Of a DNA stretch of 59,706 nt, positions 3,824 through 41,600 are shown piece after piece; position 1 is the first letter of the stretch; the number at the start of each line of letters is the position of its first letter. The notes below the pieces were generated by a model that saw only the letters and a program-made list of their open reading frames with translations, ran no database searches and was not told where the DNA came from. The translations under genes and the position numbers were made by a program. Origin of the DNA: a virus (taxonomy: Duplodnaviria > Caudoviricetes); the IMG/VR virus record IMGVR_UViG_3300042905_003262, positions 1 to 59,706 of that record. One strand, given 5' to 3'.

Positions 3824-4738
3824 TTACTTGATGAGTTTTCTGGCAAGAAGATGCTTGCGGTGCAAAGCCTTTAGCTTGGCTGGCGTGATGCCAGGAATAC
3901 GTTTGAACGGTTCAAAGTCGATGGTGACCACTTTGAGCAGCAATTCACTCAGCGCGTAGTATTCCGGAAACTTGGCGACGAACTGGTCGCGAGTGAGCTG
4001 CGTTTGCTTATCGAACGAGATAACCTTCGGCTCTTTTACGCAAAAGAAACCTGCTGAGTAATTAGTCGCGTTGCCGTAGCCGGTGTTTCTGTTGCCGGTG
4101 TTTCTGTCGCCGGTGTTGCTGTAGCCGGTGTTGCTGTAGCCGGTGTTTCTGTAGCCGGTGTTGCCGTAGCCGGTGTTTCTGTAGCCGGTGTTGCCGTAGC
4201 CGGTGTTGCTGTTGCCGGTGTTTCTGTCGCCGGTGTTGCTGTAGCCGGTGTTGCTGTTGCCGGTGTTTCTGTCGCCGGTGTTGCTGTAGCCGGTGTTGCC
4301 GTAGCCGGCGTTGCCGTAGCCGGCGTTTCTGTCGCCGGTGTTTCTGTCGCCGGTGTTGCTGTCGCCGGTGTTTCTGTCGCCGGTGTTGCTGTAGCCGGTG
4401 TTGCTGTTGCCGGTGTTGGACTTGTCATTACCGACCTTGCCCGGCGTGATCTCCTCAACAAGTCGGATGCGACGAGCAACTAGTTTAAAATTTGCTCCCG
4501 CTTCGGTTGGAACTTCTAACACATCCTCGGCTTCGCATTGGAACACGCGAGTCGTTGACGAGTTGTAATAAGACCAAACACCGGAAGGCTGAACGCAGAA
4601 GTGATAACCTTTGACGCATAACTGCAAATCGCCCTCGATCACAGGCGACCATTCGCCAAGGATGAATTGATGATCGCGGCATTTGAGATCGCTGTCAGTG
4701 GCTTTATAGCCGGTCATTTTTTTTATGTAGGTGCTCAT
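3824..4738 (-). CDS. pentapeptide (NTGxx) repeat protein
   Basis: N-domain GYKATD..LKCR..F..G...LC..GYHFC, then ~23 NTG[D/N/Y][R/S/G] repeats, then a GFFC C-domain. Confidence 0.85.
   Translation of the reverse strand: MSTYIKKMTGYKATDSDLKCRDHQFILGEWSPVIEGDLQLCVKGYHFCVQPSGVWSYYNSSTTRVFQCEAEDVLEVPTEAGANFKLVARRIRLVEEITPGKVGNDKSNTGNSNTGYSNTGDRNTGDSNTGDRNTGDRNAGYGNAGYGNTGYSNTGDRNTGNSNTGYSNTGDRNTGNSNTGYGNTGYRNTGYGNTGYRNTGYSNTGYSNTGDRNTGNRNTGYGNATNYSAGFFCVKEPKVISFDKQTQLTRDQFVAKFPEYYALSELLLKVVTIDFEPFKRIPGITPAKLKALHRKHLLARKLIK
4067..4417 (-). repeat. 15-bp tandem coding repeat array (~23 units)
   Basis: Units AAC-(A/G)CC-GGC-(A/G/T)AC-(A/G)G(A/C) on the minus strand. Confidence 0.95.
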
Positions 4739-12592: not shown

Positions 12593-13447
12593 TTAGTTCA
12601 TCATGTCGATTTGACGCCGCGCAAGTCCAGGGCCGCGTGAGTTTGCCCACGTCTGAGAGGCCATTTGAGCCATGGGGGCAATCTTGGCAACGTCGCCCGT
12701 GAAATCTGGATGGCTGCTGAACGCCATCAAAACAAGAGGCTTCAAAACGCTGTCATCGAGTCCGTTAGGCAAGAGGGCCGTGCGGGCATCGTCCCAGCTG
12801 GTCACGACAAGGGCGCGGACATCGGCCCGGAAATGCAGGATGTAAGCCTCGTCTGGCAGCGAATCAAACAGGATGCGCCGGGAAGGTGTTCCGCTGGCAT
12901 CAAGGGCGTCTTCCACGGCTGCCATGATAGGACGCTGGATGCGGCGGCGGTCCATTCCAAAACGAATCTGGTCAATGACGGCACGGTCAACTAGGCGCAT
13001 CTCCCATTTGCGATCCAAGCTCATCGGCTCGTAGATTTTGGCGATCTCGATTCCGACCGTGGTGCAGTCGAAGTGAATCGTTGCCGTGACATTCGTTCCC
13101 GTGCTGCCCATGTAAGGGTTTTCGAGCGTCACGGTGCCGTTGGACTTCACAAGCCGGTTCTCGCGGAAGTCTCCCGTGATTTGGATGGTGCAGCCGAGCA
13201 TGTATGACTGGTATCCGCTCGTGAACGTGATAGCCGTCGATTGCGCGGTGACGTTCTCGATGGTCACAGTAGCAGGGCTGCGAATCAGCGCCGTCTTGTT
13301 CTCCTGCTGGCCTCCCGAGTAAAGCTGCTGCAAGACCGCGTTCAGGTCCGAGAGCATCCGTTCACTCGTCAAGGTGGGCAATCGCGCCACGGATGTACAG
13401 CCCGCGTAAGGGAGTAGATGGGAGCGGATGGCGGCTGCGGCGGACAT
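12593..13447 (-). CDS. head-tail adaptor-like virion protein
   Basis: Position between capsid and nozzle genes; C-terminal PDEAYILHF...LLP pattern. Confidence 0.5.
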   Translation of the reverse strand: MSAAAAIRSHLLPYAGCTSVARLPTLTSERMLSDLNAVLQQLYSGGQQENKTALIRSPATVTIENVTAQSTAITFTSGYQSYMLGCTIQITGDFRENRLVKSNGTVTLENPYMGSTGTNVTATIHFDCTTVGIEIAKIYEPMSLDRKWEMRLVDRAVIDQIRFGMDRRRIQRPIMAAVEDALDASGTPSRRILFDSLPDEAYILHFRADVRALVVTSWDDARTALLPNGLDDSVLKPLVLMAFSSHPDFTGDVAKIAPMAQMASQTWANSRGPGLARRQIDMMN

Positions 13448-13450
13448 GGG

Positions 13451-13651
13451 TTAAAAGTTGGCGATTCGTTCACGCAGAACATCAAGGTATGCTCGCATCA
13501 TCGACTCTTGCCTGAATAGGCAATCGTTTTCATCGACTGAAACAGTCTTGATTTTGTCAGATAGAACAAAAGCGAGCAGTTTCGCGTGACGTTCAGCCAA
13601 TTCGGCTTCCTCGTTCAGGACGCGGAGTTGATGAGGGGTGGGAATAGTCAT
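13451..13651 (-). CDS. crAss001_48-like small helical protein
   Basis: HQLRVLNEEAEL..R..KL..F...Q...M..YL.VL.ERIANF. Confidence 0.75.
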   Translation of the reverse strand: MTIPTPHQLRVLNEEAELAERHAKLLAFVLSDKIKTVSVDENDCLFRQESMMRAYLDVLRERIANF

Positions 13652-13654
13652 AGT

Positions 13655-14752
13655 TCAGTCTTTCGGTTCACGACGCTTCACCCAGCCCGCATGGGCAAGT
13701 ACAACCGTCGATTCGGGGTCTTGAAGGGAGGCTTTGAGCTTGTCCGCGTCCACTTCAAGAGCGGCGGCTAAGTCTTTGAGGCGCATCGGAGCGTCGAGTA
13801 TGTCCCATGCGGCGGCGTAGAGAGGTTTTTCTTCCGGCTCCACGGGGGCGGTTTCCGGCTCCGGTTCTGCGATTGGCTCCGGCGTGGTCTCGGTTTGCTC
13901 CTCGGTGGCCGGTTCTTGAATGGTTGCAGGAACGGGATTTGAACCTACTCCATCTTGGTTTATCGAGACTCCCAATGCACTATCCTGTGGCAATTGCTGC
14001 ACAAAACTACGCATTTTAGAATTTCCTTCTCCACTGCGATTTTCCCCTTCGATAGCACCATTTCCCCAATGTTGTGCTCCTTGAATTTGGGGTCTTGGTG
14101 ATGGAAGTCCAATGTCGCTGGATGCGACTCCCCGCATCTGCTGCACCCTAGTTTCGTTTTGACCTCCGCTAACCAGTTTTTCAACTTCTGGCGCTGCTTT
14201 CTGTTTCGTAAGTGGTATTTGTCCTTGTGGGCTAAGTAATGTCTTCTCGCACATTCCGCCTGCTTCTTCTTGTCTTTGTATGGCATGAAGAACATTACCA
14301 CTTAGGCTCAAATCGTCAATAGGATATGAGCCTGACGACTTAACCTCTTGTCCATCCTGCGATGTGGAAACGATTTCGACGGCTTCACCTTCCGGTTCGG
14401 CTGGAGTTTCGGCAACTGCCACTTCCACGGTTGCGGGAGGCGCATATTCGCCGCCAGCCTCGCAAAGCACACGGCCAGCAGGCCCAGGCGGCAGGAGTGG
14501 ATCGACAAAGTGCGCGTAGGCGTGGAAAGAGTTCTGGTTTGCGATCTGCTTTGAGATTCCAGTCGTGAGGCGTTGCCATTCGGCCTCACTCTTGCACTCG
14601 TAGGAGCACACTTGGGGCAAATACGGGTCTTCCTTCGTTCGTGGAGTCGTGCCGTTAGAGATGCTTCCTTTGCAGGTGATGTTTTTCGAGCCGTATGATT
14701 TGGGGTTACAAATCAAAAGTCTGAGCTTCAAACGAGGGGCGTGTGTGTCCAT
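13655..14752 (-). CDS. hypothetical protein with acidic Glu/Pro linker; frame reads through an embedded tRNA and HNH gene
   Basis: Uninterrupted ORF from MDTHAPRL, with globular N- and C-termini flanking E/P-rich linkers. Confidence 0.65.
   Translation of the reverse strand: MDTHAPRLKLRLLICNPKSYGSKNITCKGSISNGTTPRTKEDPYLPQVCSYECKSEAEWQRLTTGISKQIANQNSFHAYAHFVDPLLPPGPAGRVLCEAGGEYAPPATVEVAVAETPAEPEGEAVEIVSTSQDGQEVKSSGSYPIDDLSLSGNVLHAIQRQEEAGGMCEKTLLSPQGQIPLTKQKAAPEVEKLVSGGQNETRVQQMRGVASSDIGLPSPRPQIQGAQHWGNGAIEGENRSGEGNSKMRSFVQQLPQDSALGVSINQDGVGSNPVPATIQEPATEEQTETTPEPIAEPEPETAPVEPEEKPLYAAAWDILDAPMRLKDLAAALEVDADKLKASLQDPESTVVLAHAGWVKRREPKD
13921..13954 (-). tRNA. tRNA-fMet(CAT)-like, 3' part (interrupted; weak T-stem)
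   Basis: GA-TGGA-GTAGG-TTCAAAT-CCCGT-TCCTGCA-ACCA. The acceptor pairs with the 5' part, with the initiator-type C1:A72 mismatch and an encoded CCA. Confidence 0.75.
13960..14286 (-). CDS. HNH endonuclease nested in tRNA/CDS
   Basis: CSRCG..HPATLDFHH.DP..K...I...EI.KC.VLCSNCHR..H. Confidence 0.88.
   Translation of the reverse strand: MPYKDKKKQAECARRHYLAHKDKYHLRNRKQRQKLKNWLAEVKTKLGCSRCGESHPATLDFHHQDPKFKEHNIGEMVLSKGKIAVEKEILKCVVLCSNCHRIVHWESR
14292..14319 (-). promoter_or_regulatory. promoter of the HNH cassette (leaderless)
   Basis: TTGACG-N16-TAATGT with ATG 5 nt downstream. Confidence 0.6.
14321..14361 (-). tRNA. tRNA-fMet(CAT)-like, 5' part (interrupted)
   Basis: CGCAGGA-TG-GAC-AAGAGGTTAA-GTC-G-TCAGG-CTCATAT-CCT; anticodon CAT at 14328-14326. 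Confidence 0.75.
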
Positions 14753-14812
14753 AGAGGTGAAGGAAGTATTGACGAGCCTAGCCGAAAACGCTAGTGTTTT
14801 CCTTGCGCCCAC

Positions 14813-14844
14813 AAAAAAGCGGCAGAGCCTTTCGACTCTGCCGC
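14813..14844 (-). terminator. intrinsic terminator after the major capsid gene
   Basis: GCGGCAGAG/CTCTGCCGC 9-bp stem followed by T6 on the minus strand. Confidence 0.85.
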
Positions 14845-14873
14845 CTAGATTTAGGTTTCTAACCTAACTCGTA

Positions 14874-16352
14874 CTACTCAATTTGCGGCATTCCGTCCAG
14901 ATTATATGCCGCGTATGCCATCACGAGGCCAGTGGGAACGCTGTTGGCGTTGATCTGAGTGGTGATGCCATATTGTTCCTCAAATCCGGGCTGGAAGATC
15001 AACTGCATGTTGTCGTCATTGTTGATCGTGATTTTGCCAGCGCCGGAGCCGCCCATGACAGCGCCGAAGCCGTGCATCAGCGCGTCCTGACCAAGACCCC
15101 ACAAGCGAACAAACGGCTGGCCGTAGCTGTTGCAGGGAACCACCTTGGAGCCGATGGCAAACGACTGAGTGTGCTTTCCAGCCCACACGCCGCTGTCATA
15201 GGTGACGTTACCGAGGGTGGCAAGACGTGCGTCGCTCGTAGTAGCGCCGAGGTGAGACACGCCCGTAATGGTGTTGCCATTCGTGGTCGTGTAGGAGATC
15301 ATGCCGAACTTGCCGGTGGTCTTGTCCTGAATCAGCGCATACTTCGTGGCGCTGGTTTCCTGCGTGATCTTCGTGACCTCGTGGGAGGTGAAGGCCGCGC
15401 CGGGGAAGAAGCGGAAGTAGAGATGATCCGTGAGGGCCGCAGCGGCAGCGGAAGCGCCGCCTTTGACAGTGCGAGCGGTGGTCTGCGTGAAGTCCAGCGC
15501 CTCGCCAAGGAAGGCCATCGGTTGAGCAAAGCAGCCTTGAGGGCCGTTCGCGGAATCGACCTCGACAGTCCAAGGAAGAACCGTGGAGCCGTTCCAGCTC
15601 GGGACGATGCCGGAGTACAGGTAGTTGCCTGCGCCGCGATCACCGGCCTGAGCCATGAGGGTCTGCCAGTTGTTGTCATTGCTCAGTTCATCGAGGCCGC
15701 GCTCGGGGGCTAGGATGACGTAGCGTTTCACCTCCTGCGCACCGGACTTGCCGACTGCGAAGGGCTTGGCCTGATTGTCAGCCAAACGGCCAGCCATGCG
15801 GCGGAACAGGGCGGAATCGGCGTAGTGCGAGCTGCGAAGACCTTCAATCGACGTGGCGGCACTGTTGGCATACACGCTATTGGAGGCACCGGCAGCGGCG
15901 CAAGCGCGGAGGATTTCGGCCTCCGTCATGGATTCACGCTCACGGGCAAACCAAGGAGCGAGTTTGCCACGGACACGGGTGTCAGCATCCTTGCCCACGA
16001 CAGACTGAGCCGCAGAAACGCGGTTCAGGATCACGGATTTGTGATGGTTGCCGAACGTGAGGGCGAACATTGCGCCCTTGATGTTTTCGCCGCCCGATTT
16101 GCGGTCTGCTAACGCGCCCTGTTCACCAGGGCCGCCGAGTCCGGCTTCGACGTAAAAGTTTTTGGTGACGCCTTGAAGGTTCTTCAAGCTGGAGACAGTC
16201 GCGATGGCGCGACCACCGGCATTACCGGCCATGAGTTTGAAGAAGATGGAGCGAGCGAGGGAGTCGAGAATTGTCCCGGCTGCCCACTGTTGCTCTTGCG
16301 AGGATGTGCCCATGTTCGAGACGATTTGGGCGGTCGTGAATGCAGTAGCCAT
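14874..16352 (-). CDS. major capsid protein
   Basis: 492 aa with strongly biased codons, after the scaffold and followed by a terminator. W.T....AGDRG..N.LYSG...WNG pattern of N4-gp56/DUF4043-like capsids. Confidence 0.8.
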   Translation of the reverse strand: MATAFTTAQIVSNMGTSSQEQQWAAGTILDSLARSIFFKLMAGNAGGRAIATVSSLKNLQGVTKNFYVEAGLGGPGEQGALADRKSGGENIKGAMFALTFGNHHKSVILNRVSAAQSVVGKDADTRVRGKLAPWFARERESMTEAEILRACAAAGASNSVYANSAATSIEGLRSSHYADSALFRRMAGRLADNQAKPFAVGKSGAQEVKRYVILAPERGLDELSNDNNWQTLMAQAGDRGAGNYLYSGIVPSWNGSTVLPWTVEVDSANGPQGCFAQPMAFLGEALDFTQTTARTVKGGASAAAAALTDHLYFRFFPGAAFTSHEVTKITQETSATKYALIQDKTTGKFGMISYTTTNGNTITGVSHLGATTSDARLATLGNVTYDSGVWAGKHTQSFAIGSKVVPCNSYGQPFVRLWGLGQDALMHGFGAVMGGSGAGKITINNDDNMQLIFQPGFEEQYGITTQINANSVPTGLVMAYAAYNLDGMPQIE

Positions 16353-29666: not shown

Positions 29667-32600
29667 TCATTTGCCGCCGTAGTTCAGGCGTTTTCGCGCT
29701 TCAATAAGTCGTGCCTTCGCCCTCTCGGCTGCATCGTCTTTCATCGGAACGGGGCGCGGTGGAGTGCTTGGAACTGGCATCGAAGGCGCTGGCGACGGCC
29801 TCGCGGAAGGTGTCGAAGGCGCTGCGGCTGGCGTTGTGGTGCCGAAACGCTCCTCGCGGCCCATGGAGCCGCGCACGGACTTGATGGCGTTGGTCCGAAC
29901 CTCTTTGATCGCGTCGATCATCTGCGGCGTGACCGGCTTACCTGGACGCCAACCAGCCGCCATTAGTTTTCTCCCGGCGTAGTCGGAAAACTTCTGGCCG
30001 ATTTCCTGTTCAAACTTAGTGATTTTGGCCGGGTCTTTGAGGGGAACCTGCTGCATCTTGCCGTCCACTTTCGGGCCGTAAACGTAAAGGTCTGCTTTCG
30101 TGAGCGGGTCGGGATTCCATTGCTGGTCCGGGTTGGTGGCGTTCCACTTTTTAAGCGCGGCGTCAAAAAGTTCCGTGCTGGCCTTGGATGCCACCGGGAA
30201 CAGAACGCGAGTGACGGCATTTCCGCCTCGCTGCACTGGCTGCCCGGCCTCGTTGACTTTGGGCTGACCAATGCCGAGCGAGCGGGAAAGCTCCGATTCG
30301 GCCTTTTTAGCGTCGGCGATTTCGTCTTGGCTGAGACGGTAGGGCTGGCGGATTAAATTCGGGATCGCGCCATTCATCAGGTTTTTCATCAAAAGCTCTT
30401 TAGCCGAGAAGTTTTTACTCCCAGCATCTTCATAAAATTGCATAATACCCGAAATGCCTTGCAGGAATGTCTTTTCCTTCGCCTGAGCGAGGACGTGCCG
30501 CATCATGGAACCGGCGAGCTTGTCGGTGGTGCGGTTTTCGGGCTGGAAGCGGGTCCACTCTTTGAACTCGCGAGCACCGTCAACAAGCGTTGAGAGAGCC
30601 AGCGCGATAGGTTCATAGCGCCCATAGGCAAATTGAATGGGTTTATCCAGTTTTTCGCCCGTGAGCGGGTTTTTGCGGATGATGATAAGGTTTGAGCCGC
30701 CCTCTTGCCGGAGCTGGGAGGCGCGTTCACCAGCATTTGCGACACCAAACGGGCGAGAGCCTGTGATTTCGATAGCCTTTTGGTTGTCGTCGTCGTCACC
30801 CTCAGACATTCCCATGACGATGAACCAAAGAGCCGTCGCCATGACGGATTCGGACACGTCTTTGACCATCGCGCCTTCGCGGTAGGATCGGAACTCGTTG
30901 TTATTGCCCTTGATGGCGTAGTAACCCGACTTGCCGAGGCGATAGAGCAGCATTCCGGCGCTTCCGCCTGCTTTGCGGATACCAGCGCGGTAAATGTTGG
31001 TCGGCGTGCGGACGAAGGGGAGCAGGTAGCGCATGAGGCCACCCACGAATTTAGCCCGCTTGAGCGCATTCGTGACGCCTTCAACGGCCTTCGTGATGTC
31101 GTTTTCGTCCTGGAACGTGAGTTCAGTAGCCTTCTCAAAGGCGTGCTGCCACGACTCGGAGCCGTGCGTTGCAATCTGAGACGCCATGAAGTTTGTCAGA
31201 GCCGCGCCTGCCAAGCCCTGTTTTTTGCCGAGTCGATACGCCATAGCGGCGCTTTCGGCGTGCATGATGAGCGTCTTAGCAAAAGCATCCTGGGCGACAA
31301 GGAAACGGCCTGGAACGCGGACGATACGGCCCAAGGTGCCGCCGAAAGAAGGACGGATGCCGCCCACCTTGTCGAGGTTGCCGCCTTGGAACATGACCGT
31401 GACGGGCTTATCGAGATATTGGTGCTCTACCGGGTCAGCCTCCGTGTCCCATGCGAGCGCAAAGTTGCGCAAGGCTGGCATGATGCCTTTGTAGAAACCG
31501 GCCCAAACGTGCCTAAACTCTCCAAACTGCGGAGCGTTGGGATTGCGGATTGCCACATTTGTGGTCGCTTCCGCGAACCACTGCGGCCCGTAGGCCCATG
31601 CGGTTGAGAGCAGGTTAGAAGCCGTGTTGACGACGTGCGTTTGAGGGCCGGACAAAATGCCGTTGATCCAGTATTCATAAGCCTTGTCGAGCTTGGTAGC
31701 CTCGCGGGTGGAAAGCTCGCGGGCGACACGATAGACCTGCTTCCAATCGGCGGCATTATAGGGCACAAACACCTTTTGGGTCTTTTTGCCGTATGTCCAT
31801 GTAGCCTCATGGAGCCAGTTGGAATTTCGCTGCGATTTCGTTGGGATTGCGGTATTAAGAATGGACTGCACTGCTTCCGCTACTTCTTGGGCGCTGGCGT
31901 TTCGCTTCTTAGCCCTCGTGTTTGCAAGGTCTTCGGCAAGATTGCGCCGTTTGCCGCTCGGAGTTGCCCGCAAGGCATCGTCCATCTCGCTAATGATGCG
32001 CTTACCCCACTGGATGAACTTGCTGAACGTGTTACCTTTGCCGACTTCCTTGGAAACGGCCTGCTTCGCTACGACGTTGCGGAAGTGCTCTGCTGTGTTG
32101 CTTACTTCGGCGACCGAAAGCCCGGTTTCCTTCGCGATAGCGTTGTCGGAGTAGCCGCGAACGCTCATTTCGATGGCCTTTTTGTGAGCCGCCGACTGCT
32201 GGGACAGGTGAACACGGGCGAGGCCAAGAATAGCCTCCTGCATGGCGAAACGGTCATCCACGGACAAGAACAGGTCCGTTTGAGTCAGGCCGTTGCGCTT
32301 CAAGATGGCGTCCACCTTGGCGTCATCCTCGCGGGCGAGTTCTTCCATGACCTCGTTTTGATCCTTGCGAGCCTGGGCTTTCTCAAGCTCACGCTGGGCA
32401 CGTTCGCGTTGAAGCGTGTCTTGTGTCGAGGCGAGGCGGCGCTTGAGTTCCTTGATGGCCGCGAGCTTTTCGGCTCCTGACCACACGTTGACGAGTCTTT
32501 CACGCACCGTCTTGGAACTTGGCGAGAGGATATTCCGCATTGCGTTATCAAGGCGCTGTTGCGGCGTCTCGACCTTATCGACACGAGAGCCGAGCTTGCG

Positions 32601-35600
32601 GGCTGTCTCGCTGGCCTCGCGCATATCGGCCATAAAGAGCAGTTTGGCCTTTGTGCGGCTGGCAGGATTGTCGTTGCCGTCGATCCAGAGCACGCGGGCA
32701 ATCATGCGGCGGGCAATGTCTTCCTCAAGCGAGAGGACGATTCCCTCGCGCATCTTGCCGACGATTTGGTTATAGAGGCGGTCAAAGCCTGCCTGTTCGG
32801 CAATTACCTCGTCAACGGCGGCTTCGATCTTCTGGTAAGAGGCCGTTTCGAGTTCCTTGTCCTCGTAGGTCTGGCTCAGTTTGTCCCATGCGTCACGCGC
32901 ACCGGGCAGGTTGGATGCCTGATTGGCGACGTTGCGGCGTGGTTTCTTGCCAGTGTCGCCCTCTTTGACGGTCGGAGTGGCAAAAAGCGCCTGTCCTGCA
33001 TCAACGCTAGTCCGCATTTGCGGCGTGATGTCCACGCGCCAGATGGGGGTGGTTTTAAAATCACCATCGCGAGGAATTGCAGCTAGCTTGTCCGCTTCGC
33101 TCATTGCGTAAAATTCATCGCGTGAAGTTAGCGCGTCGGGATCGACGTATTCAAGCCATGCCGAATAACTACTGACGTATTTTTTCAGGCTTTCTAAATC
33201 CTCAATCTCACCATTCACCACGCCCGCGCCCCACTGCTTCACATACTTGCCAATTTCTTTCGGCAGGATGGTATCGTAGAAGCCCTTCATGCCTTGGCCG
33301 CCGACTTTCAATTCGTCGCCAGAATAGACGCGGTATCCCATTCCTGGCATATCCGCGATGGCCTTCTCTGCTAACTCCTTGCCCACGGTGTCTGCTAGCT
33401 TGGAGTCAGATAATCCAGCTTGTGAAACAGTTTCGGAGCCGCCCTTAATCCCGATTACCGACCATAGCCCGTCTTGTTGCTTGCGGATATTGAGAGAATC
33501 AACCTGCTTACTGAGGTCAAACCGCTCTGCCTGCGTCTCGCCCGTCGTCCAGCCGATCCACTGCTTGCCAGCGGCCACCGCGTCCGCGAGGGCACGCTTG
33601 AACATCTGGAGCGGCCAGGTGGTGCGGAATGGGGCGTCAGGGATTCGAGCATTCGCAATGTTGTCCAATTTGGACGCCCAATCTTTAGCATATTCAATAG
33701 CCTCGTTTTCCGTGTTTTGAGTAGAAATTGGCTTGCCCGTTGATTTTCTAATAACTACCCAATCGCCAATAAATTGATTGTTGGATGGCTCATATTTAAT
33801 CTCGAAAGTATCATTATAATCAACTTCGCCCTGATACCCCTTCTTCCGCCCTGCCTGATGGCGGTCGCTCTGGATTTCCTCGATGAACGTCCCGGCCTGG
33901 CCCTCGGCGTCCGTGCGGTCGTTCACCCGCATGTGGGCGACGTAGTTCGGCACGTCGGGGAAGTGGCTGGAGGTGTATTCAGGTGGTTCGTTGTAGGCTT
34001 CAGCAGGCGTTTCCGTGATGATTTGGAGGCGCTGCGCTTCCGACAAATCGGCCCATTTGGGTTCACCTCCTCGGCGAACAAAGGTTTCGTAATAAGCGGC
34101 TGCCGCATCCGACATCCCACGCCTCGCTATCGGCATCGCCAGCACCACCTCGCGGTAGTTCTCGCCGCCTGAGAGTTGGTATTGGGAGAATTTGGTGTCC
34201 GTAACTTCGGCTTTGTCGTCACGCATGCGGATCAACCGTTCATGCTCGTTTTTCAAACGGGTGATTTCTGGTCCGTTGCGGACTTCGGTAGGCCATTTAC
34301 TGCGATCTTCTCCATAAACATTGGCTGCGTCTTCTCGGTAGATTCGCATTTGACGCGTCACTTCGTTAATTTGACGAACAAGTTCAGGGTCATACCGATT
34401 TCCTAGCTTTCCCCCCATCCGCACCTCCTCCAGCCTCACCGCGCCATCCGTCGCCAGATATTCCAGCACAGCCTGCTTGGTGATCGGTGACGCCTGCGCC
34501 TCAATCCACGGCAGAATCCCGCTCCATTTCAGTTCCTCGGCCTTGATGCCGGTCTGCGGATTGGTGATGAGGCCCTTGATCGTCGCCACGTCGGCGCGAT
34601 TTGGCATCTTTTGCTCGATAACTTGCGCCAGTTTGGAGTAGAAGGGTTCATTTCGGACAGTTGGGCTGGCCTGCAACGGCTCCTCTACGCCATCGGCGCG
34701 GGAGGATTCAGGGTTGCCAAAATACTTCTCCTCGACCAGTTCATTGAGTTCTGGAAAGAACGTGTCCGATAGATCAAGCCATGAAACATCGCCTGAATTT
34801 ATCTTCTCCACATCAAACTCGATGTCGGCGTGCGTAGCGGCGGAGTCGGTGGCTTCGTGATCAGAAACGCGAACATCAAAAGTCACGGTTAGTTTGCCAG
34901 TGTCTTCATCACGGTCCCAAGACAACCCTTCCCGATCTGCCCACACCTCAGCGTTTGGCCCTTGTTCCGTAGGTTCTGCCAAAACTGTGAAATAGGTCGA
35001 ATTGGAGATGCGGCTGCGTCCTGTCTTGATAATTTTGGCACGACTGAATGCAGAATGATAGGTGTCGCCACGCTGCCAGCCGCGACTCTTAACGCGATCA
35101 AGGAAATTGCGGAAGTAACCGGCGGCAATACGGTTTTGCTCTTTGGTGTCTTCTGCTTCTTGGGCAGCTAAGAACTTTGGATTCTCGTAAATCGGCACCT
35201 CCGCCTCAGAAAGACCGCCCGGTGAAGATTGCAACGGCTCCTTAGTCGCGGCCCACTCTTCTAAGATCGTTTCCGGCGTCTCGGTAGCATTTTCGGCAGC
35301 ATCCATGATTTCCGCGTCCGTGATAGGCGCGAGGGTCATTTTGCCGTCTTGGATCGTCACAAGGGGCGCATAGACGCCGCTTTGAACCGCCTGCATGAAC
35401 TCTTGGCGTGTCAGGTCTGGATTCTTCGACTTCGCGGCAGCATAGACGGCGCTGACTCGTGGCGTGTCGCCTTGCTGGCGTTTGGCGGTCACGAAAGCGG
35501 CGTGGAGGTCTGGAATGGAGACTTTGGGGGCGGCAGGGGTGGCTTGGATGGGTGCCACCTTGCGGCTTTCGGCGGAAGGCAGGCTTTTTGCCAAATCCTT

Positions 35601-38600
35601 TGCATTGCGCACCATTACCTCGCGGCCTGACACGTTGCCGGTAATGCTGTGCCAGCGGTTCCACTCATCCACAAACGACCGCGCCTGTTCAGTAACTTCA
35701 TCGGACTTGCCGAGTTTCGAGAACATTCCAGCCAGTCGATTTGTGAGTTGCGAGTTTGTCGTCCGTTTGGTCGCTATAACGTCAAACACATTGCCTGTTG
35801 ATGTCCTAAACGTGGCCGAGAACTCCGTGAAGTCCTTTTTGATGCTGTCCATGAACTCCTGTTGAACATCGGAAGGCTTTTCCTCGCGGCTTTCTGGTTC
35901 TGCGGCCTCATTGACTCCACGCCAATAAATTCCCCCTCCAGACTTTTCCATCACAACCTCAAATAATGCCAAGTTTGGCCCTGACAAAGTGGACAGAATA
36001 GAATCATCGCCCTTCTTGCGGCCAAGTTTTCTATCTGTTCCCCGCTCGATCCACTCGCCGTCAGAATTGCGCGTGACAATGATGCCGCTTGGCGATGTGC
36101 GATAGGTGCGGGCATATTCGGACTGCCTGTATTTATCGGCGGCGGCCTTCGATCTGGCGTTTTCGGCGGCATCTCGACTGGCTGTCTCCTCAACGATTTT
36201 CGCCATGACCTGCCTCCCTTCGTCTCGCGGCATGATGGCAGTTTTTCCTTCGGTGTCCATTTTAGCCAACGCCAGTGATTCGCGGTCTGCGGCTTGATTT
36301 GTGGAGTTGCGTTTTTCCACATAGACGGACGGATCGCCATTCAGGCGGTGAAAATAGACCGCACGGTTGAAGTCGCCCGTTTTAGCACGCTCTTTTGCCA
36401 CTGCTGCTTCAAGAGTCTCCATCATCGTTGTTTGCGCTGATGTAGGCGGAATAATTTCCGTTTCGGGTTCTGCGGCCATCTCGGGGGATTCGGGCGCGGG
36501 GGAGGCCCACTTCTCAAGTCTGACAGCCAGTTCGTCGGCGTTCAGTTGCCAGAACTTCGCATCCATCTCCAAGGCGCGGCGCATGCGGGACGCTGATGCG
36601 GCAATGTTGCGGTTGTAATCTGGCCCTTTGCGCTCGTATGGCGCGGCCATGGCGAGCAATTCCTGTGGTGTCTTGCCTGCAAGTGTCGTGTCAGCCTGGG
36701 TTTTGAGGCTTGCGGCTTGCGGCGTATCTTCCGCAGCAATAGGGGGGACGGTTTCAACCTTCGTATCCCTTTCCGGCATCGTCGGCTCTACGACCTGCGC
36801 CTTGACGCGCATGATGACAACCTCTGCATCTGGCGAGGTGAGCATGATTGGCCCCTCTCCGCGCTCTGTGCCGCTCTTGATGGCAACTTTCTCGTGTCCA
36901 AGTGCGCGAAAACCTGCCAGCGCATCCATGACGAGTTCAGCGTCAAACGAGCCGACCGCCTCGCCGCCTTCTTGAATGTTGTGCTCGTAGGTTTCGAGGT
37001 TCTGGTTGTTCAAGACTTGGCTCTTAACTCCAAGAGAGCCGTCCTGATTGATGGAAATGGCGACGTAAGGCGTCACGTCCTCGCCTTTGCCCCTAGCAGC
37101 CTTGAAATTGACATCACGAGCAAGAGAACTGGCCTGCTTGAGGATTTGCCACAAGCGCCCCGTGTCGATGCCTTTGTGAATCACTGGAATATCGGCAGGA
37201 ACCACGGCTTTCCAGCCTGGAGGGAATTTCCCAAGTTTTTCATTCTCGGACTGGAGGCCGAGCTTGTTGCCCTTGGTGTTGAACAACATCGGATCGTCTG
37301 CCTTGCCAAACCCTTCAAAGGGAATCGTGAATAGCATCTTTCCATTGGTGGCGACAAGCACATCACCAAAGTCTGCTACCTGCATGATTGTTTGGCGCGT
37401 TTCGTCAGTGCTGGCAAACATGCCCGCCACCTTTACAACGTCTGCCTTGCCAAGTTTGCCGCTTTTGAGTGTCGGGATACCAGACTGGCGAATAGGATTC
37501 AGGGTCGGCGCGTCTGCCGATGGCGTTGTTGTCGGAAAACTCTTGGCAATCTTGGCAAAATTCTGGAGCGTCTTCTTGTCGTTCCAAAGGGTAAAAGTGC
37601 CGTCGCCTGGAATCTCGATCACCACCTTGCTTTCAGATGGAACGCTGGCGCGCACAGCCGCTTCAATATCGACTTTTTTGGCTTTGGGGTCGAGATTGTA
37701 TTTCTCGCGCAGTTTCGCCATTGCTATCCCGACATTTGGCGTGGTCGATTTGTCGCTAAGGCCCATCAGTTCAACCAAGTCTTTGCGAACGTCGCCAAGT
37801 TTGGCCTCGTCCGGCGCTGCCGCAATAGCATCGTCCAGTTTTTCGAGAAGATAGGTCTTCATGGCCCGCAACGCCTTTGTGTCGGCGGGCTTCTTTTCCT
37901 TCACAGGCTCCGGCATCGCCTCTTCCTTGGCTACGGCGGCAGCTTGGGGCGGTGTGAGGTCTGGCAGGGCGGCTAGTTGCGTGGAAACTTTGTCTTTTTC
38001 CGTTCCCATGCCTTTTCGCAGAGTGTAGCGAAGGGCTTCGCGCAACTCGTTGTAAATCTTCTGGTGTGGGGTGTTGAAAATTAGCTGCCCGTCTGCGGTC
38101 TTGGCTCCGACATCTTGCACTAGCTGCATCACGGCCTCCGTGTCGGCCTGATTGACAGCCAAGCGGATTACACGTTGCGGCATGTCCACGCGGCTTTGTT
38201 GGCTAGCGTTCATACCTAGCCACTCGCCAACGAATTGAGCCAGCGGCGAGGCGTAAGGCTCGGACTTGGTTTCTGCTGCGGCTGGCTCGGTATCATTTGA
38301 TACCTCGCGGGTGGTTTCTGACTCGGTGAACGCGGCCTTGATTTTTGCAAAGTCCACATTGCCGTTTTCAGGGTTCATTGCCCCCAACTTGGTCAATCCT
38401 TGCTGCCACTTCGGAGACATGCCGCCTTCAAACTTGGCAGTCTTGCCGCTAATGAAGTCAGCCAGCTTTGCAGTGTTGTAGGCATTGGCAAACTCGTCTC
38501 CAAATATTTCGTTGATCCACGCTACCGCCTTAGAGTCGGCATTGGCAATTAGAGAGCGATCAGATGCCAGTTTATCAGCCTCTTTAGATGCTTGGCTCGA

Positions 38601-41600
38601 TTCCCTTGCCTGTGACTCAGACTCGAAAATAACCGTCTGGAGCATCCTGAGGGCATCAGAATCCATGATGGTGAGTTCCGACTGCAAACGCTCGCCCTTC
38701 TGGTTCATGCGCGACGGCTTTAGACCTGCGTCAGTAAATGCGGTGTGCATCATGTCGCGCTCGTCAATCGTCCAACGGGTGTTGAAGCCCGGCTTCACTA
38801 AACGATCCTTGCGAAGCGTCCATGTTTTGCCATAGCCATCCATCAACGCGACGATTTTTGCGCGGAGTTTAGCAAAGTTTTCTTCGTAGGCTGCATTAAG
38901 TCGTTTCCGTGCTGCCGCATTCGCGTCCTCGGTGGAAACTTCTTCATCCTCCTCTTTCACGAGCATTTGACTGTCACCAAACGGAACACCGTTCAAAACC
39001 TGCTGGTCGGTGAGCTTACTGATGCTGTAGAGGCCATAGAGCGAGTCGCCAATCTTGAACAATCCTGGTAGAACCTTCGTCACGGGCGCATTGCCCCCGT
39101 AGTAGGCGCGAAACCACTTGGAAACCATTTCCTCTGTCACGGGAATGTTCGCCTCTGCGGTTGCGGGCGTGTCGGCTTTGGCTTTCGATTTGGTAACTAC
39201 ATCCAGCGCAGCCTTAATGTCGTCGGGGTGCTCCGTAACAAGAATAGCATCAATCTTCGCCGATGACGGTTGGCGCAAGAGTTCCTTATTGAGTTGCGAA
39301 AGCTGATTGGCGCTCAGTTTATCGAGACGATCTTTGTTGTTGACTGTCAAGGCGTCGAGTCGTGCGCTTTCCTCGTCGGAGATGATGCCGGTTGGCGGCT
39401 GATTGGCCCCTAGAAACTCAATGGCGCGTTGCAGCGTCTCGAATGGCATTCCGCCGACAAGCTCTGCGCCGGATGGCGTGTCATAGGCATGGAAGATGGG
39501 GCTGCCGCGAATACCAGTCTTCTCAACGATCACGAACTTGGCATCTCGATACGCTTCGGTAGCGCCTCTCTTGATGGCCCTGGACAACTCGGTTGATTTG
39601 CCTTCGTCCTGCTCATTCGCGAAAGCTGGAGCCGCCCCCTGTTCAGGAGACGACTCCGTAACTCCTTCCGCGCTTGGTGGACGAGATGAAACTTGGTCAA
39701 GCTCCCCGTAGATCGTAGGCCAGTGCGGATTCTCTTCGAGCGTCGAGTCAAAGCCAGACATCAAGCGCCAGAAAGCTCTGGTGTACTGCCGGAGTGCGCC
39801 ATTCGGAGCAAGTTTGTCGAGCCGTTGCGCCAGTTCTTCCGGCTTGCGAAGTCCGAGATCAATCAAGGTGCTCGCAGCCTTCATCATGGCATCGCGTCGA
39901 TCCTTGGGCAGGTCAGACTGAGCCAATGGCTTTACGGTCGGAGATGCGAACAGGCCAGCAAATGCTTCACCAAGGGCAGCATCGCCTTCGTCCATTTCCT
40001 GCGCTTTTGGCGCTTCTGCTGTCGGTTTGGCGACTTCGGGGGCAGGCGACTCCAGTTTCCACCCTCCAACGGCGGCTTGCGGCTCAACATCGCCTTCGTT
40101 CTCGCCTTCCATGCCCATGACTGGCGTTTCACCCTCAAACGAGATGACTGGCCCCATGCTGCCCTGACTGTCCATGATGATGTCGCCAATCTTGACGGTT
40201 GGGCTATCAAGGTCGGTGCGTTCCCGCTTCTTGGGCGGAGTTGAGTCATTTGGCAGGGCGTTCACCTCGGCCATGGTCATGCCTGAAACCTTTGCGACCT
40301 GCGCAGGCTCCATGCTGGTCTTATCTGGCCCAATCTGAACGTCAAAATTGCCGCCTCCTGTCCGATAAAGCACAAGCATGGGTGTTCCGTTGCGAGTCTT
40401 GCCACGCCACACGGCTGGCGTCTTGAGGAAGGCTAGGCGCTTTTGCCACGCCTCTAGGCGCTTGCCCGCCGCCTGCATGGATTCGGTCATTTCTGGCGGC
40501 GTTCCAGCGCGAGGCTTACCGTTCTTGAAGAAGTACTTGGCAGCGCGGGCGTTGTGATCTGCCACCATTTGAGCCAGAGCCTTCTCTTGAGCCTCAACGG
40601 TTGCCTCGCCTTTCGTCATCGTTTTGGCGTTTGTTGGCATTGTGCTACCGCCTTCGGTCATCACCTGCATGAACCCTTGCGAGTTTGGCGGCGAAATGAC
40701 GATGAATTGATTACCATTCGCGTCCGTAGCCGCATCACCGACAGTCCAGCCTGCCTCATCATTGCCACTTGACTCTTTCTCAGTATTGATAGAAACTGGA
40801 TTCGCAACGGTTGTTGACGACCCTTCAACCGGCTTACCGGAAGTGCTCACGGCCCCGGCGTTTTGAGTTTGCGCAGGCTCAGCGTCGGGGCTGATGCTTT
40901 TCTCGAAGGCGTCGAGGGCATCCGAGACGAGCTTAATGTCTTGATCCACCTGGGCAATCAGGTCATTCCGGGCGGACTCGGACTTGATGCTCGCGAACTG
41001 CTTCCGCAAGTCTCTCAAAAGTGCGAGAACGTCGTCAAGAAACTTGCGCCACTTGTCGGCGAGGTCTTTACCGATGACCTGCTCCGTCATGGTGCCGTCC
41101 TTCATAGCTTCGAGCATGGCGCGATAATACTCGTGGCCGCCGTGGTCTGGATTGAGCGGCTTCGGTTCGAGATCGCGAGCAACACGGCGAACCGAATATG
41201 CCTTCTCGATCTTCTTTTGGACATCTTCTGGAAGCTGGCCCCAAATGTCTTTCACGCGGGCGTCGCCAAGCTGCTCAACTACGAACTTGTGAATCAGCTC
41301 GTGGCGGAAGAATTGGCGGGCCTGAGCAGCGGCGTTGTCGGCGTCGGTGGAATCGCCAACAAAACGAGCCAATGCCGTCTCGGGATTGATAATCAACGCC
41401 TGTTCACGGCGGCCCCATGCGAAGTCAAAGGCCGGATCATCGGTGAGCACAATGGGGAGATGCCCATTGTAGCGGCGCAGACCATCAATGATGGCCTTGG
41501 CGGCAGCGGTGGCTTTGGGCTTATCGCCAGCGGATGCGGCCTGGACAATAGCAGCCATGCGAGCGTGTGCTTGCCCGATGAGTTCGCGGCCTTTGGGCGC

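Follow-up and report, generated by a model that had tools for sequence, protein, structure and literature searches.

How can an endonuclease gene lie inside a tRNA sequence that itself lies inside a protein gene, all on one strand, while the frame of the protein gene stays open from end to end? This question is raised by a locus in a 59,706-nt stretch of viral DNA (Duplodnaviria; Caudoviricetes; IMG/VR record IMGVR_UViG_3300042905_003262), hereafter called the window. As judged from sequence comparisons, the locus probably consists of three layers, namely a protein gene, a tRNA nested in it and a stop-free HNH cassette, with the protein read through the cassette and the tRNA dead. In the open-access full-text literature that we searched, we found no earlier description of such nesting of an HNH gene in a tRNA in an open protein frame, nor any report of an in-frame tRNA nested in a phage coding sequence or of an endonuclease gene within one.

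The outer layer is an ORF of 365 aa (13655..14752, minus strand, like all features located below), counted from the ATG at 14752; if a GTG start is used, it reaches 14812..13655. Based on the ORF list, 33 homologues and alignment A1, the N-terminal domain of its product is rich in Cys and the C-terminal domain (13658..13840; about 55 aa) is conserved; between them runs a long Glu/Pro-rich linker, with poor conservation in A1, in which both the tRNA and the insert are located. The C-terminal domain shows coding-type evolution (identity at 317/585 third codon positions vs 920/1170 first and second positions), and its frame is the sole open frame of the tRNA. Between loci with capsid proteins only 24-30% identical, this domain is 55-73% identical. 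An HTH_17-type domain was considered here and not established: in profile comparisons against A1, the probabilities were 0.2% and 4.9%. One related locus (L025) carries HTH_17 about 55 aa past its tRNA.

Upstream of the outer ORF lies the major capsid protein gene (14874..16352; phrog_334 major head protein, E 8.3e-5). Its product also matched Pfam Phage_capsid_3 at E 0.0014, under the cut-off of that family. An intrinsic-terminator-like hairpin (14817..14846), which gave weak Rfam matches too, is located 3' of the capsid gene and upstream of the outer ORF. The downstream neighbour is a 66-aa crAss001_48-like gene (13451..13651; PF21825, E 4.2e-15), and this family is found fused to the outer-protein homologues P0016 and P0021. 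Related loci keep the order of capsid gene, outer-ORF gene and homologue of a 284-aa gene. No DNA similarity to 13400-15100 was found among 50,697 phage records, and no solved structure was matched by sequence at E<=1.

The second layer is the tRNA. ARAGORN called 0 tRNA genes in the window as it stands, and Rfam RF00005 had no match there, because 366 nt interrupt the anticodon stem. In its intron mode, ARAGORN called no tRNA-Met in the unjoined region. When the two halves were joined in silico by coordinates, ARAGORN at default settings called a tRNA-Met(CAT) of 75 nt, with or without flanks. The 5' half (14321..14361; 41 nt, tRNA positions 1-41) comprises the acceptor 5' strand, the D arm, the anticodon stem 5' strand, the CAT loop and three bases at the start of the 3' strand; the 3' half (13921..13954; 34 nt, tRNA positions 42-76) comprises the last two anticodon-stem bases, the variable loop, a T arm with a weakened stem, the acceptor 3' strand and ACCA. 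In the drawing of the joined tRNA, C1 stands opposite A72, the CCA end is present, and the T stem contains one A:C mismatch and two G:T pairs. Model R1, a covariance model for which 13 uninterrupted relatives were used, matched both halves, scoring 44.1 bits (E 1.5e-12) for the 5' half and 20.1 bits (E 4.5e-5) for the 3' half. Each half is unique in the window, 0/100 shuffles produced a match, and the first 26 bases of the 5' half are identical to those of an intact nested copy, L024. The earlier note on this DNA, which had read tRNA-fMet-like halves at 14361-14321 and 13954-13921 within the Glu/Pro linker of a protein and had proposed a tRNA finder on the joined 75-mer as the check, was right on each of these points. 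Lowered-threshold ARAGORN calls, including a 'tRNA-Ser' with the same ends and another junction, were judged spurious.

Bacterial initiator tRNA-fMet has a 1:72 mismatch, an A11:U24 pair in the D stem and, where the anticodon stem meets its loop, a run of three G:C pairs. The window has the CAT anticodon and the 1:72 mismatch, and alignment A2 shows no variation at A11 or T24. The three G:C pairs are not present: pair 29:41 is A:T in the window and in 10/13 sequences, and among the 13 sequences mostly only pairs 30:40 and 31:39 are G:C.

The same arrangement was found in relatives. ARAGORN identified a tRNA-Met(CAT) in frame within the ORF at 13/16 loci reached via the C-terminal domain; the other three were a contig starting inside the T arm, a locus with decayed in-frame remnants and a locus with no tRNA. 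A search of IMG/VR with a pattern of the tRNA 5' end gave 13 matches, 11 of them tRNAs: 3 free-standing ones and 8 inside long ORFs (up to >4969, 2047 and 1886 aa). The 5470-aa ORF of the window was tried as a homologue of these giant ORFs and rejected, with a single weak match only. At the protein level, a tRNA-shaped peptide was recognised by patterns in 19/32 non-self homologues and by eye in 3 more. Of 12 loci compared with Rfam, each of the five of type A scored 48.5-57.5 bits as a tRNA, above the cut-off of 29. Nested copy L051 is in a Verrucomicrobia MAG, whose own tRNA-Met shares the type B acceptor-stem letters; the binning may be wrong.

The intact nested copies are under RNA-type constraint. 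Across 13 sequences, 247/247 stem cells were paired, and 8 of the 19 pairs had changed on both sides, with the compensatory changes falling in three stems; 0/500 shuffles reached the real value, and slid controls were paired at 37-51%. Third codon positions in the tRNA part were conserved like the others (278/330 vs 572/660). The 1:72 mismatch was kept in 13/13 relatives, as C:A, C:T or C:C. The larger finding is the nesting of a tRNA in a coding sequence, which is conserved across many phages with constraint at the RNA level.

Is the tRNA-shaped stretch used as a tRNA at all? It could instead be a DNA-level site (a hot spot of recombination or homing, or an attachment site comparable to the tRNA-derived attP within the fusellovirus integrase gene) or else an element of the mRNA, marked as a target by the HNH. 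Such a role would fit the behaviour of the 'tRNA + linker + C-terminal domain' module, which is joined to unrelated N-terminal parts and is well conserved between phages with diverged capsids. It would also fit the occupation of one linker by three tRNA types and mixed remnants across loci, the odd loop bases in several nested copies (C33, G55), and the lineages in which the tRNA is decayed or absent and the ORF persists. However, a DNA site does not explain the compensatory changes in three stems with every cell paired. The 1:72 mismatch is retained, as is the entire tRNA rather than just a 3' part. Free-standing members of this tRNA lineage are found as well, in phage tRNA arrays of the ordinary kind (L019, L021). 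When 185,579 species genomes were scanned with the 5' pattern, a single additional nested copy and 19 chance matches turned up, and no tRNA of a host. In SSV-type archaeal viruses, a tRNA-derived attP lies inside the integrase ORF, and a tRNA sequence is likewise found within a reading frame; there, a partial host tRNA serves as a DNA site, whereas the phage group has a whole cloverleaf with compensatory changes and no matching host tRNA by the 5' pattern. Another likeness is offered by animal mitochondria, in which tRNAs overlap coding regions (10.1101/001875). We consider a DNA site or mRNA element unlikely and favour nested genes for putatively functional tRNAs in the relatives.

The tRNA of the window is interrupted by an insert of 366 nt, equal to 122 codons of the outer frame (13955..14320), which is missing from 15/15 aligned homologues. 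Its G+C content is 46%, vs about 58-63% in the flanks. The ARAGORN join places it between tRNA positions 41 and 42, i.e., in the anticodon stem, in agreement with the proposed split of the 3' strand of this stem by 366 bp. The exact junction had been regarded as ambiguous; when a cloverleaf is required it is not, because the letters at the borders differ and the junction cannot slide. The insert 5' end had also been described as complementary to the D/anticodon arm. Pairing does exist, in the form of a hairpin in the fold (14308..14346) between D/anticodon-arm bases (14346-14335) and the insert start (14319-14308), just upstream of the HNH start; its strength is only modest (-23.3 kcal/mol, z -1.8, 9/200 shuffles as good). 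The promoter that the earlier note had seen in the insert was not reproduced, as a sigma-70 scan of 13400-15000 gave 0 sites. Two pseudo-acceptors that model R1 matched in the insert (7 of the first eight tRNA bases at 13989-13982 and 6 of 7 near the HNH start) were judged to be chance, because about 0.14 such 7-of-8 matches are expected per 366 nt.

The third layer is the HNH endonuclease gene in the insert (13960..14286; 108 aa plus stop, or 113 aa from an alternative GTG at 14301), which leaves only 39 nt of the insert non-coding. As proposed before, it is read in another frame, +1 relative to the outer ORF. Its product matches phrog_3106 (E 2e-24) and phrog_2255 (E 2.3e-23), with the CxxC...HH...N...CxxCH motifs intact; a Pfam search gave no match, and no clear ribosome-binding site precedes the gene. 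The family has 382 small homologues. Relatives adjoin or overlap tRNA genes in phage tRNA arrays at 4/5 related IMG/VR loci, two of the five loci looking like one sequence. No second occupied site of the cassette was found in IMG/VR or the related loci, and the best non-self relative is 50-51% identical over its full length; no recent mobility is documented for these two reasons.

HNH-less alleles, which the earlier note had suggested seeking, were found as proteins. All 15 aligned homologues lack the HNH block at the same point of the tRNA-shaped peptide and read through the intact tRNA-shaped stretch. In the empty alleles P0003 and P0011, the peptide is ...GSYPEN(T/E)GS..., vs ...GSYP[122 aa]DGVGS... 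in the window. The three codons just 3' of the insert are thus changed (DGV vs ENT/ENE), which is a hint of co-conversion of the flank; the empty alleles are known from proteins only, and the exact junction and the 9-nt patch are deduced from peptides. A pattern for the donor of the changed 3' junction had 0 matches in IMG/VR.

An insert in a tRNA gene may be removed from RNA. Cyanobacterial tRNA-fMet is a case of a tRNA with a group I intron. Bacterial tRNA genes are classic homes of such introns, which lie in the anticodon loop and in some cases carry endonuclease ORFs (PMC3984707), and the window resembles them in having a tRNA-Met-type gene interrupted by an endonuclease-bearing element. 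A T precedes the insert (14321), as at group I 5' splice sites, and the 441-nt precursor folds (z -2.3) with its acceptor stem still paired. However, no intron family of Rfam, group I and group II included, matched 13300-15000 at E<=10, and no known RNA family reached its gathering score in the whole window. With only 39 nt outside the HNH ORF, there is no room for a group I core, as had been argued earlier. The insert ends in A (13955), not G, at a border that cannot slide, and the site 41/42 is in the anticodon stem, not the loop. Moreover, a spliced insert needs no stop-free host frame, yet the openness is selected (see below). A 151-nt contig from an RNA library, with 100% identity, spans the border between the insert and the 3' half unspliced; this is weak evidence against splicing, as the contig may be DNA carry-over and contigs cannot show RNA processing. 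Joints representing HNH-less DNA or a spliced form were absent from the contigs of four sequencing runs, a result that says little. A second RNA run (X24) contained only diverged pieces. We regard a minimal or unknown self-splicing or host-spliced intron, whose removal would restore the tRNA and a short mRNA, as very unlikely. A group I intron was rejected for its unmatched catalytic core and missing terminal G; an intein, which would have its endonuclease in the host frame and Cys/Ser/Thr...His-Asn splice residues, was rejected as well, the HNH being in the +1 frame and the host-frame insert starting with Ile and ending with Ile-Asn-Gln, followed by Asp.

Could the two halves work without being rejoined in cis? 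The earlier note had offered an unusual split tRNA, or a deliberate source of tRNA halves, as the alternative. Both halves are little changed, each matching model R1, and the 5' half agrees with intact L024 in its first 26 bases, as would be expected if they were processed and then joined or paired in trans. However, what they share is limited to the acceptor stem and two pairs of the anticodon stem; the insert ends have no long leaders complementary to each other; the T stem has a mismatch; and a sister sequence, P0039, is altered at the conserved base 10. We know of no bacterial system for joining such tRNA halves. This alternative is without support and is extremely unlikely, and the split tRNA of the window is most likely inactivated. 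The reading that we favour is that proposed first in the earlier note, an intron-less, homing-type HNH gene in a tRNA-Met sequence tolerated by dual coding, with homing as a putative property. It is favoured because of the lack of a ribozyme, the 39 non-coding nt, the empty alleles, the tRNA-adjoining relatives and a host frame purged of stops.

The outer ORF has 0 stops across the 366-nt insert in the ORF list, which had been thought unlikely by chance. The calculation agreed: the frame stayed open in 48/20000 dinucleotide shuffles, in 24/20000 synonymous resamplings with the phage codon usage, in 258/20000 with the usage of the HNH gene itself and in 666/20000 synonymous permutations of the HNH gene's own codons (p only ~0.03). 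The equivalent frame of four relatives' HNH genes contains 13, 15, 19 and 26 stops. T was found at the third position of 0/40 codons preceding AA/AG/GA codons, vs 10/72 elsewhere (one-sided p ~0.01), and the cassette is stop-free in the host frame because third-position T is avoided before codons starting with these letters. The stop-free host frame is non-random and selected to be open. The outer protein is most likely translated through the cassette.

Homing endonuclease genes split genes in T4-like phages, and the outer ORF might be open yet not translated through, yielding an N-terminal polypeptide and a C-terminal one with a start of its own. Exactly such a division is encoded by one variant contig, from which 13 nt are absent (13978..13990, deduced from P0038/P0040/P0042/P0043 vs the window proteins). 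As deduced from these proteins, the loss takes away the last HNH His motif, and the outer frame is shifted so that it runs into the stop of the HNH gene; gene callers place a TTG start for the C-terminal piece inside the insert. The long, poorly conserved linker also speaks for the division. On the other hand, avoidance of third-position T would be pointless in a frame that is not read, and the intact 365-aa protein is on 32 contigs vs 1 contig for the frame-broken variant. Homologues with separate N- and C-terminal genes had been named earlier as evidence against the nesting; instead, all homologues keep both parts in one ORF. Division into two products is thus quite unlikely in the window, and translation through the insert is preferred. 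The variant would indicate that frame continuity is not absolute, unless it is an assembly error or a defective genome. The whole stretch was present in 22 lake-water DNA runs (2020-2024), all 22 being possible sources of this DNA and not independent.

We propose the following model. A structural-module gene after the capsid gene encodes a two-domain protein with a long acidic linker. In this phage group, a full initiator-like tRNA-Met(CAT) gene is written into this linker on the same strand, in the tRNA's only stop-free frame, with the same bases serving as the tRNA and as about 25 linker codons. In relatives, host tRNA-processing enzymes may cut the tRNA from part of the late transcripts, and unprocessed transcripts would yield the full-length protein. 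The lineage of the window would have acquired the 366-bp cassette with a small free-standing HNH gene of a tRNA-associated family, the product of which may be active in DNA cleavage and homing. Transcripts of this locus would remain unspliced, because there is no ribozyme; the outer protein would gain 122 linker residues, and the HNH would be translated from its own start in the +1 frame.

More tentatively, and with somewhat less than even confidence, we suggest that dual use through nested in-frame tRNAs is a regular feature of the genomes of a broad freshwater phage group, in which the tRNAs would be released from late mRNAs and act as a portable junction of protein modules, with the HNH specialised for this niche. 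Disordered linkers, both in structural and in giant virion proteins, would then carry initiator-type tRNAs, and the homing endonuclease gene of the window would have evolved stop-free in the host frame, placing three functional layers on one strand. If the tRNA is released, every processing event destroys an mRNA, a trade-off between tRNA supply and protein yield. The position of the tRNA at the border of swapped protein modules suggests that tRNAs and the endonucleases targeting them may drive mosaicism inside genes, not only between them. Because annotation pipelines treat a tRNA call inside a coding sequence as an error, nested tRNA genes are probably discarded systematically.

The locus shares features with several known systems. 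In phage T4, SegB is a free-standing homing endonuclease encoded in the tRNA gene cluster, and it promotes inheritance of the region (PMC2330249). Relatives of the window HNH occur in similar settings, as free-standing endonuclease genes among phage tRNA genes without an intron; SegB, however, is a GIY-YIG enzyme encoded between tRNA genes, whereas the window HNH is inside a tRNA inside a protein gene. In Aeromonas phage Aeh1, mobE reportedly splits nrdA without an intron, and in T4, mobA is said to be associated with the gene 60 bypass, in which ribosomes hop over the gap. In these cases, too, an intron-less endonuclease gene lies within a coding gene that survives by a work-around, but theirs are split polypeptides or hopping, whereas that of the window would be overprinting, with the nested tRNA as the direct target. 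T4 also has a mobE (PMC2790892). The window would be a clear natural case in which overprinting, and not an intron, an intein or gene splitting, lets a coding gene tolerate a foreign gene; overprinting would then be a fourth work-around, besides these three, by which homing endonuclease genes are accommodated. As in viral overprinting (PMC8227390), two proteins are encoded on the same strand in different frames, here over about 330 nt; the overlap in the window differs in that it arose from an inserted foreign gene, not from a new frame in an old gene, and in that it carries an extra layer at the RNA level.

The locus lies on the minus strand of a linear record of 59.7 kb with an estimated completeness of 65%. 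Downstream of the major capsid gene (16352-14874) come a terminator-like hairpin (14846-14817) and then an outer ORF of 365 aa that runs from an ATG at 14752 to a stop at 13655; 3' of it are a crAss001_48-like gene (66 aa) and a 284-aa gene. The search for homologues of this protein gave 33, the window's own copy included. It matched no family in Pfam or PHROG, and a search of solved structures returned no relative. In two homologues (P0016 and P0021), the protein is fused to the crAss001_48-like family, which is a separate downstream gene in the window.

Within the outer ORF, on the same strand, there are a 5' part (14361-14321) and a 3' part (13954-13921) of a tRNA-Met(CAT), separated by 366 nt. 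ARAGORN called zero tRNAs and Rfam gave zero matches in the window as it stands. When the two parts were joined by script according to their coordinates, ARAGORN at default settings called a 75-nt tRNA-Met(CAT), with flanks present or absent. In the drawing of the joined molecule, C1 stands opposite A72, the D stem has 3 bp, the anticodon stem 5 bp and the 3' end is CCA; one A:C and two G:T pairs make the T stem weak. With a covariance model derived from 13 relatives whose tRNA is uninterrupted, the scores were 44.1 bits (E 1.5e-12) for the 5' part and 20.1 bits (E 4.5e-5) for the 3' part; each part occurs once in the window. The earlier note had described a split tRNA-fMet-like sequence with the CAT anticodon, the C1:A72 mismatch and the CCA end and had proposed the tRNA finder on the joined 75-mer as a check; both the description and the check held.

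The insert has a G+C content of 46%, compared with ~58-63% in the surrounding DNA. It contains an HNH ORF of 108 aa (minus strand, ATG at 14286) that lies in frame +1 with respect to the outer ORF; an alternative GTG start at 14301 would give 113 aa. The ORF matched two HNH families of PHROG (E 2e-24 and 2.3e-23) and none in Pfam, and its translation shows paired Cys as well as the His/Asn/His residues, confirming the HNH gene that had been read in another frame. Searching 5.8 billion proteins (E<=1e-5), we obtained 382 small HNH proteins. Of the 120 matches listed, most have 106-140 aa and span 96-100% of the query; by this measure the gene is full length within its family. The best non-self match listed is only 50-51% identical. 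At the 5' border of the insert, a hairpin (z -1.8) pairs tRNA bases 14346-14335 with the insert's first bases, as expected from the complementarity to the D/anticodon arm noticed earlier. This hairpin may be a gate on the HNH start.

The outer frame has no stop in the 122 codons across the insert. Dinucleotide shuffling left it open in 48/20000 cases; it was also open in 24/20000 synonymous resamplings with phage codon usage, in 258/20000 with the HNH gene's own usage and in 666/20000 permutations of its own synonymous codons. A stop arises in this frame where a T-ending HNH codon precedes a codon starting with AA, AG or GA; T-ending codons were found before 0/40 such codons and before 10/72 other codons. 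The same frame in the HNH genes of four relatives contains 13, 15, 19 and 26 stops. The openness is not due to chance, in agreement with the earlier note, which had judged chance unlikely. An insert removed by splicing would not need a stop-free host frame, and this is our main argument for translation of the protein across the cassette. Removal by splicing would leave both the protein and the tRNA uninterrupted, and several features argue against it: none of the intron families searched matches, the HNH ORF leaves just 34 + 5 nt of the insert as non-coding sequence (which bears out the earlier remark that there is no room for a group I core), its last base is A, the insertion site lies in a stem, and the fold of the precursor is only modestly better than those of shuffles (z -2.3). 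On the features tested, the cassette does not look like a group I intron, an intein or an archaeal-type split tRNA.

The 122-aa block is absent from all 15 homologues aligned with the window, so that the HNH-less alleles sought as a check were found at the protein level. Two close homologues, P0003 and P0011, read ...STSQDGQE(V/A)KSSGSYPEN(T/E)GS(N/T)P(V/S)PATI..., the peptide that the window's type of tRNA encodes when uninterrupted, whereas in the window ...GSYP is followed by 122 residues and these by DGVGSNPVPATI. Comparison of these peptides places the insertion between positions 41 and 42, with three bases of the anticodon stem's 3' strand lying before it. As read from the peptides, the three codons just 3' of the insert are changed relative to the empty alleles, which would account for the T-stem mismatch in the window.

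tRNA genes in frame inside ORFs were also found in other phages. A search with the C-terminal domain of the outer protein gave 16 loci (6 from IMG/VR and 10 metagenome contigs, one contig being common to both sets), and ARAGORN called a tRNA-Met(CAT) in 13 of them. All 13 are on the coding strand inside an ORF that continues through into the conserved domain, and the other two reading frames are closed or short. The three loci without a call are L007, which begins inside the T arm; L016, in whose homologous ORF no tRNA was found; and L009 (1-1163), whose ORF carries the first bases of a type-B tRNA and, further on, a type-A tRNA with internal deletions, its D-arm bases gone and its anticodon stem fused to the acceptor 3' strand. 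Since these remnants are in frame in a homologous ORF, the tRNA decays there while the ORF survives. Type A, the window's type, is 75 nt long and scores 48.5-57.5 bits against Rfam tRNA (cut-off 29); type B, which has 72 nt and whose D arm is short, scores 26.6 bits, just below the cut-off. A third tRNA-shaped type, known from peptides alone, is common among the window's closest homologues and can be threaded on a cloverleaf.

A context-blind scan of IMG/VR with the first 22-25 bases of type A found 13 loci, comprising 11 tRNAs and 2 chance matches. Three of the 11 are free-standing, two of these in ordinary tRNA arrays; the other 8 are in frame inside long ORFs (two contigs that the C-terminal domain had already turned up; L026; and L017, L018, L023, L024 and L025). 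The ORFs of L017 (>633 aa), L018 (>4969), L023 (>960), L024 (>2047) and L025 (>1886) run off their loci and are unrelated to the window's outer gene. A scan of 185,579 species, one genome each, gave 20 matches, 19 by chance and one further nested copy in a Verrucomicrobia MAG. All nested copies share the peptide form (S/P)QDGQ..KS.GSYP...GS.P.PAT, and no conservation between contexts was found in residues beyond the tRNA borders. The contig with the Verrucomicrobia copy (L051:230-303) was binned into the MAG; the acceptor 5' strand of the MAG's own tRNA-Met (L080:1498-1572) is identical to that of phage type B, and the 3' strand differs at one base, a possible host clue. In the giant ORF of L025, an HTH_17 domain (4437-4571, aa 1479-1523; E 4e-6) begins ~55 residues beyond the nested tRNA. 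A faintly similar motif is present in the C-terminal domain of the window's outer protein, but the profile comparison was not significant. A single ORF of 5470 aa in the window (29667-46079, minus) shows only one weak similarity to the giant nested-tRNA ORFs, and a search of it for remnants of a tRNA gave none.

We aligned 13 distinct type-A sequences, 10 nested and 3 free. The 19 cloverleaf pairs are standard in 247 of 247 cells, with two-sided changes in 8 pairs across the D, anticodon and T stems. These values were reached in none of 500 shuffles; when the partners were slid by 1-3 columns, pairing fell to 37-51%. Several double changes are between nested copies, in the T stem (L006/L014) and in the anticodon stem (L010, L017, L024, L051). 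A 1:72 mismatch and A11:T24, marks of initiator tRNA, are present in 13/13 and invariant, respectively; the third mark, three G:C pairs in the anticodon stem, does not hold, pair 29:41 being A:T in 10 of the 13. In six loci with the same C-terminal domain, identity in the tRNA part was 278/330 at third codon positions and 572/660 at the first two, compared with 317/585 and 920/1170 in the domain itself, the usual coding pattern (the locus pairs are not independent). By stem co-variation and third-position conservation, the same DNA behaves as a structured RNA gene inside sequence coding on both sides. Some nested tRNAs (L004, L006, L014 and L032) have C33 instead of the near-universal U, and G55 instead of U in the T loop, which is odd for working tRNAs. 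This is reminiscent of the anticodon-loop changes that have been proposed as evasion of host nucleases (PMC10264068).

In related loci, the capsid gene is likewise followed by the tRNA-bearing gene and then by a homologue of the 284-aa gene. In L001-L015, identity is 55-73% in the C-terminal domain (window 13658-13840) and only 24-30% in the capsid protein (14874-16352), and N-terminal parts of at least two unrelated kinds are attached to the domain. These sequence comparisons point to a tRNA-plus-domain module that may be exchanged between phages. The identity contrast and the differing N-terminal parts, along with the occurrence of three tRNA types and of mixed remnants in one place, suggest that the tRNA marks the junction of exchange.

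Relatives of the HNH gene (39-46% identity) were found at five loci in IMG/VR, of which L029 and L030 are apparently the same sequence. In L027 (1765-2330), the HNH gene lies 45 nt 3' of a tRNA-Pro and is directly followed by a second, slightly different copy of the last ~28 bases of this tRNA plus trailer, as if the cassette had entered the T-loop region, bringing or displacing a 3' end. In L028 (1157-1646), the HNH stop codon is inside the first bases of a downstream tRNA-Pro; in L029/L030 (L029:2001-2422), the HNH ORF reaches into a tRNA-Asn up to the anticodon loop, in an array of 15 tRNAs. No tRNA was found near the gene in L031. A further HNH copy in L029, at 786-1020, is broken. These neighbourhoods show that the window's HNH gene belongs to a tRNA-associated family of free-standing HNH genes. 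Neither a second occupied site nor a close HNH relative was found, IMG/VR included, so mobility is suggested only by the habits of the family and the presence/absence pattern.

Intron-less insertions into coding genes are known from T4-like phages, and the cassette resembles them. It may also work like SegB, a free-standing homing endonuclease gene of the T4 tRNA region (PMC2330249). Unlike in these cases, the site in the window is a tRNA itself nested in a CDS, and the tolerance would be by read-through in another frame. In the open-access full texts searched, neither in-frame nested tRNAs in phage genes nor the three-layer arrangement was described, and the broader phenomenon is possibly new. 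The stop-free frame, the lack of an intron match, the tRNA-associated HNH family and the empty alleles all agree with the earlier proposal of an intron-less homing-type element in tRNA-Met tolerated by dual coding, and we consider an HNH cassette read through within a CDS-nested tRNA the probable explanation of the locus.

The stretch is present whole in 22 lake-water DNA runs from 2020-2024, all flagged as possible sources of this DNA. Among four runs compared at the level of contigs, two DNA runs contain the occupied form in one piece, and no joint of an HNH-less or spliced form was seen. In one lake sample with the window's phage (run X1), another contig (record 2, 10.6 kb) has a related uninterrupted tRNA, aligned to window 14320-14361, at ~3x the depth of the window's phage. 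One RNA-library contig of 151 nt (13848-13998), identical to the window, crosses the border of the insert and the 3' half; it is weak evidence, because DNA may be in the library and contigs cannot show processing. A 15.8-kb contig lacks 13 nt (13990-13978; P0038, P0040, P0042 and P0043 in the outer protein's 90% cluster). By this loss, the outer frame slips into the HNH frame and stops, the HNH protein loses its last His motif, and the C-terminal piece is started separately by gene callers; a split form of the outer protein is thus present in the data, which counts against our reading. The intact protein is on 32 contigs against this one, which may stem from misassembly or from a defective or minor variant. 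P0039, a sister sequence, has a change at tRNA base 10, which fits relaxed constraint on the broken tRNA.
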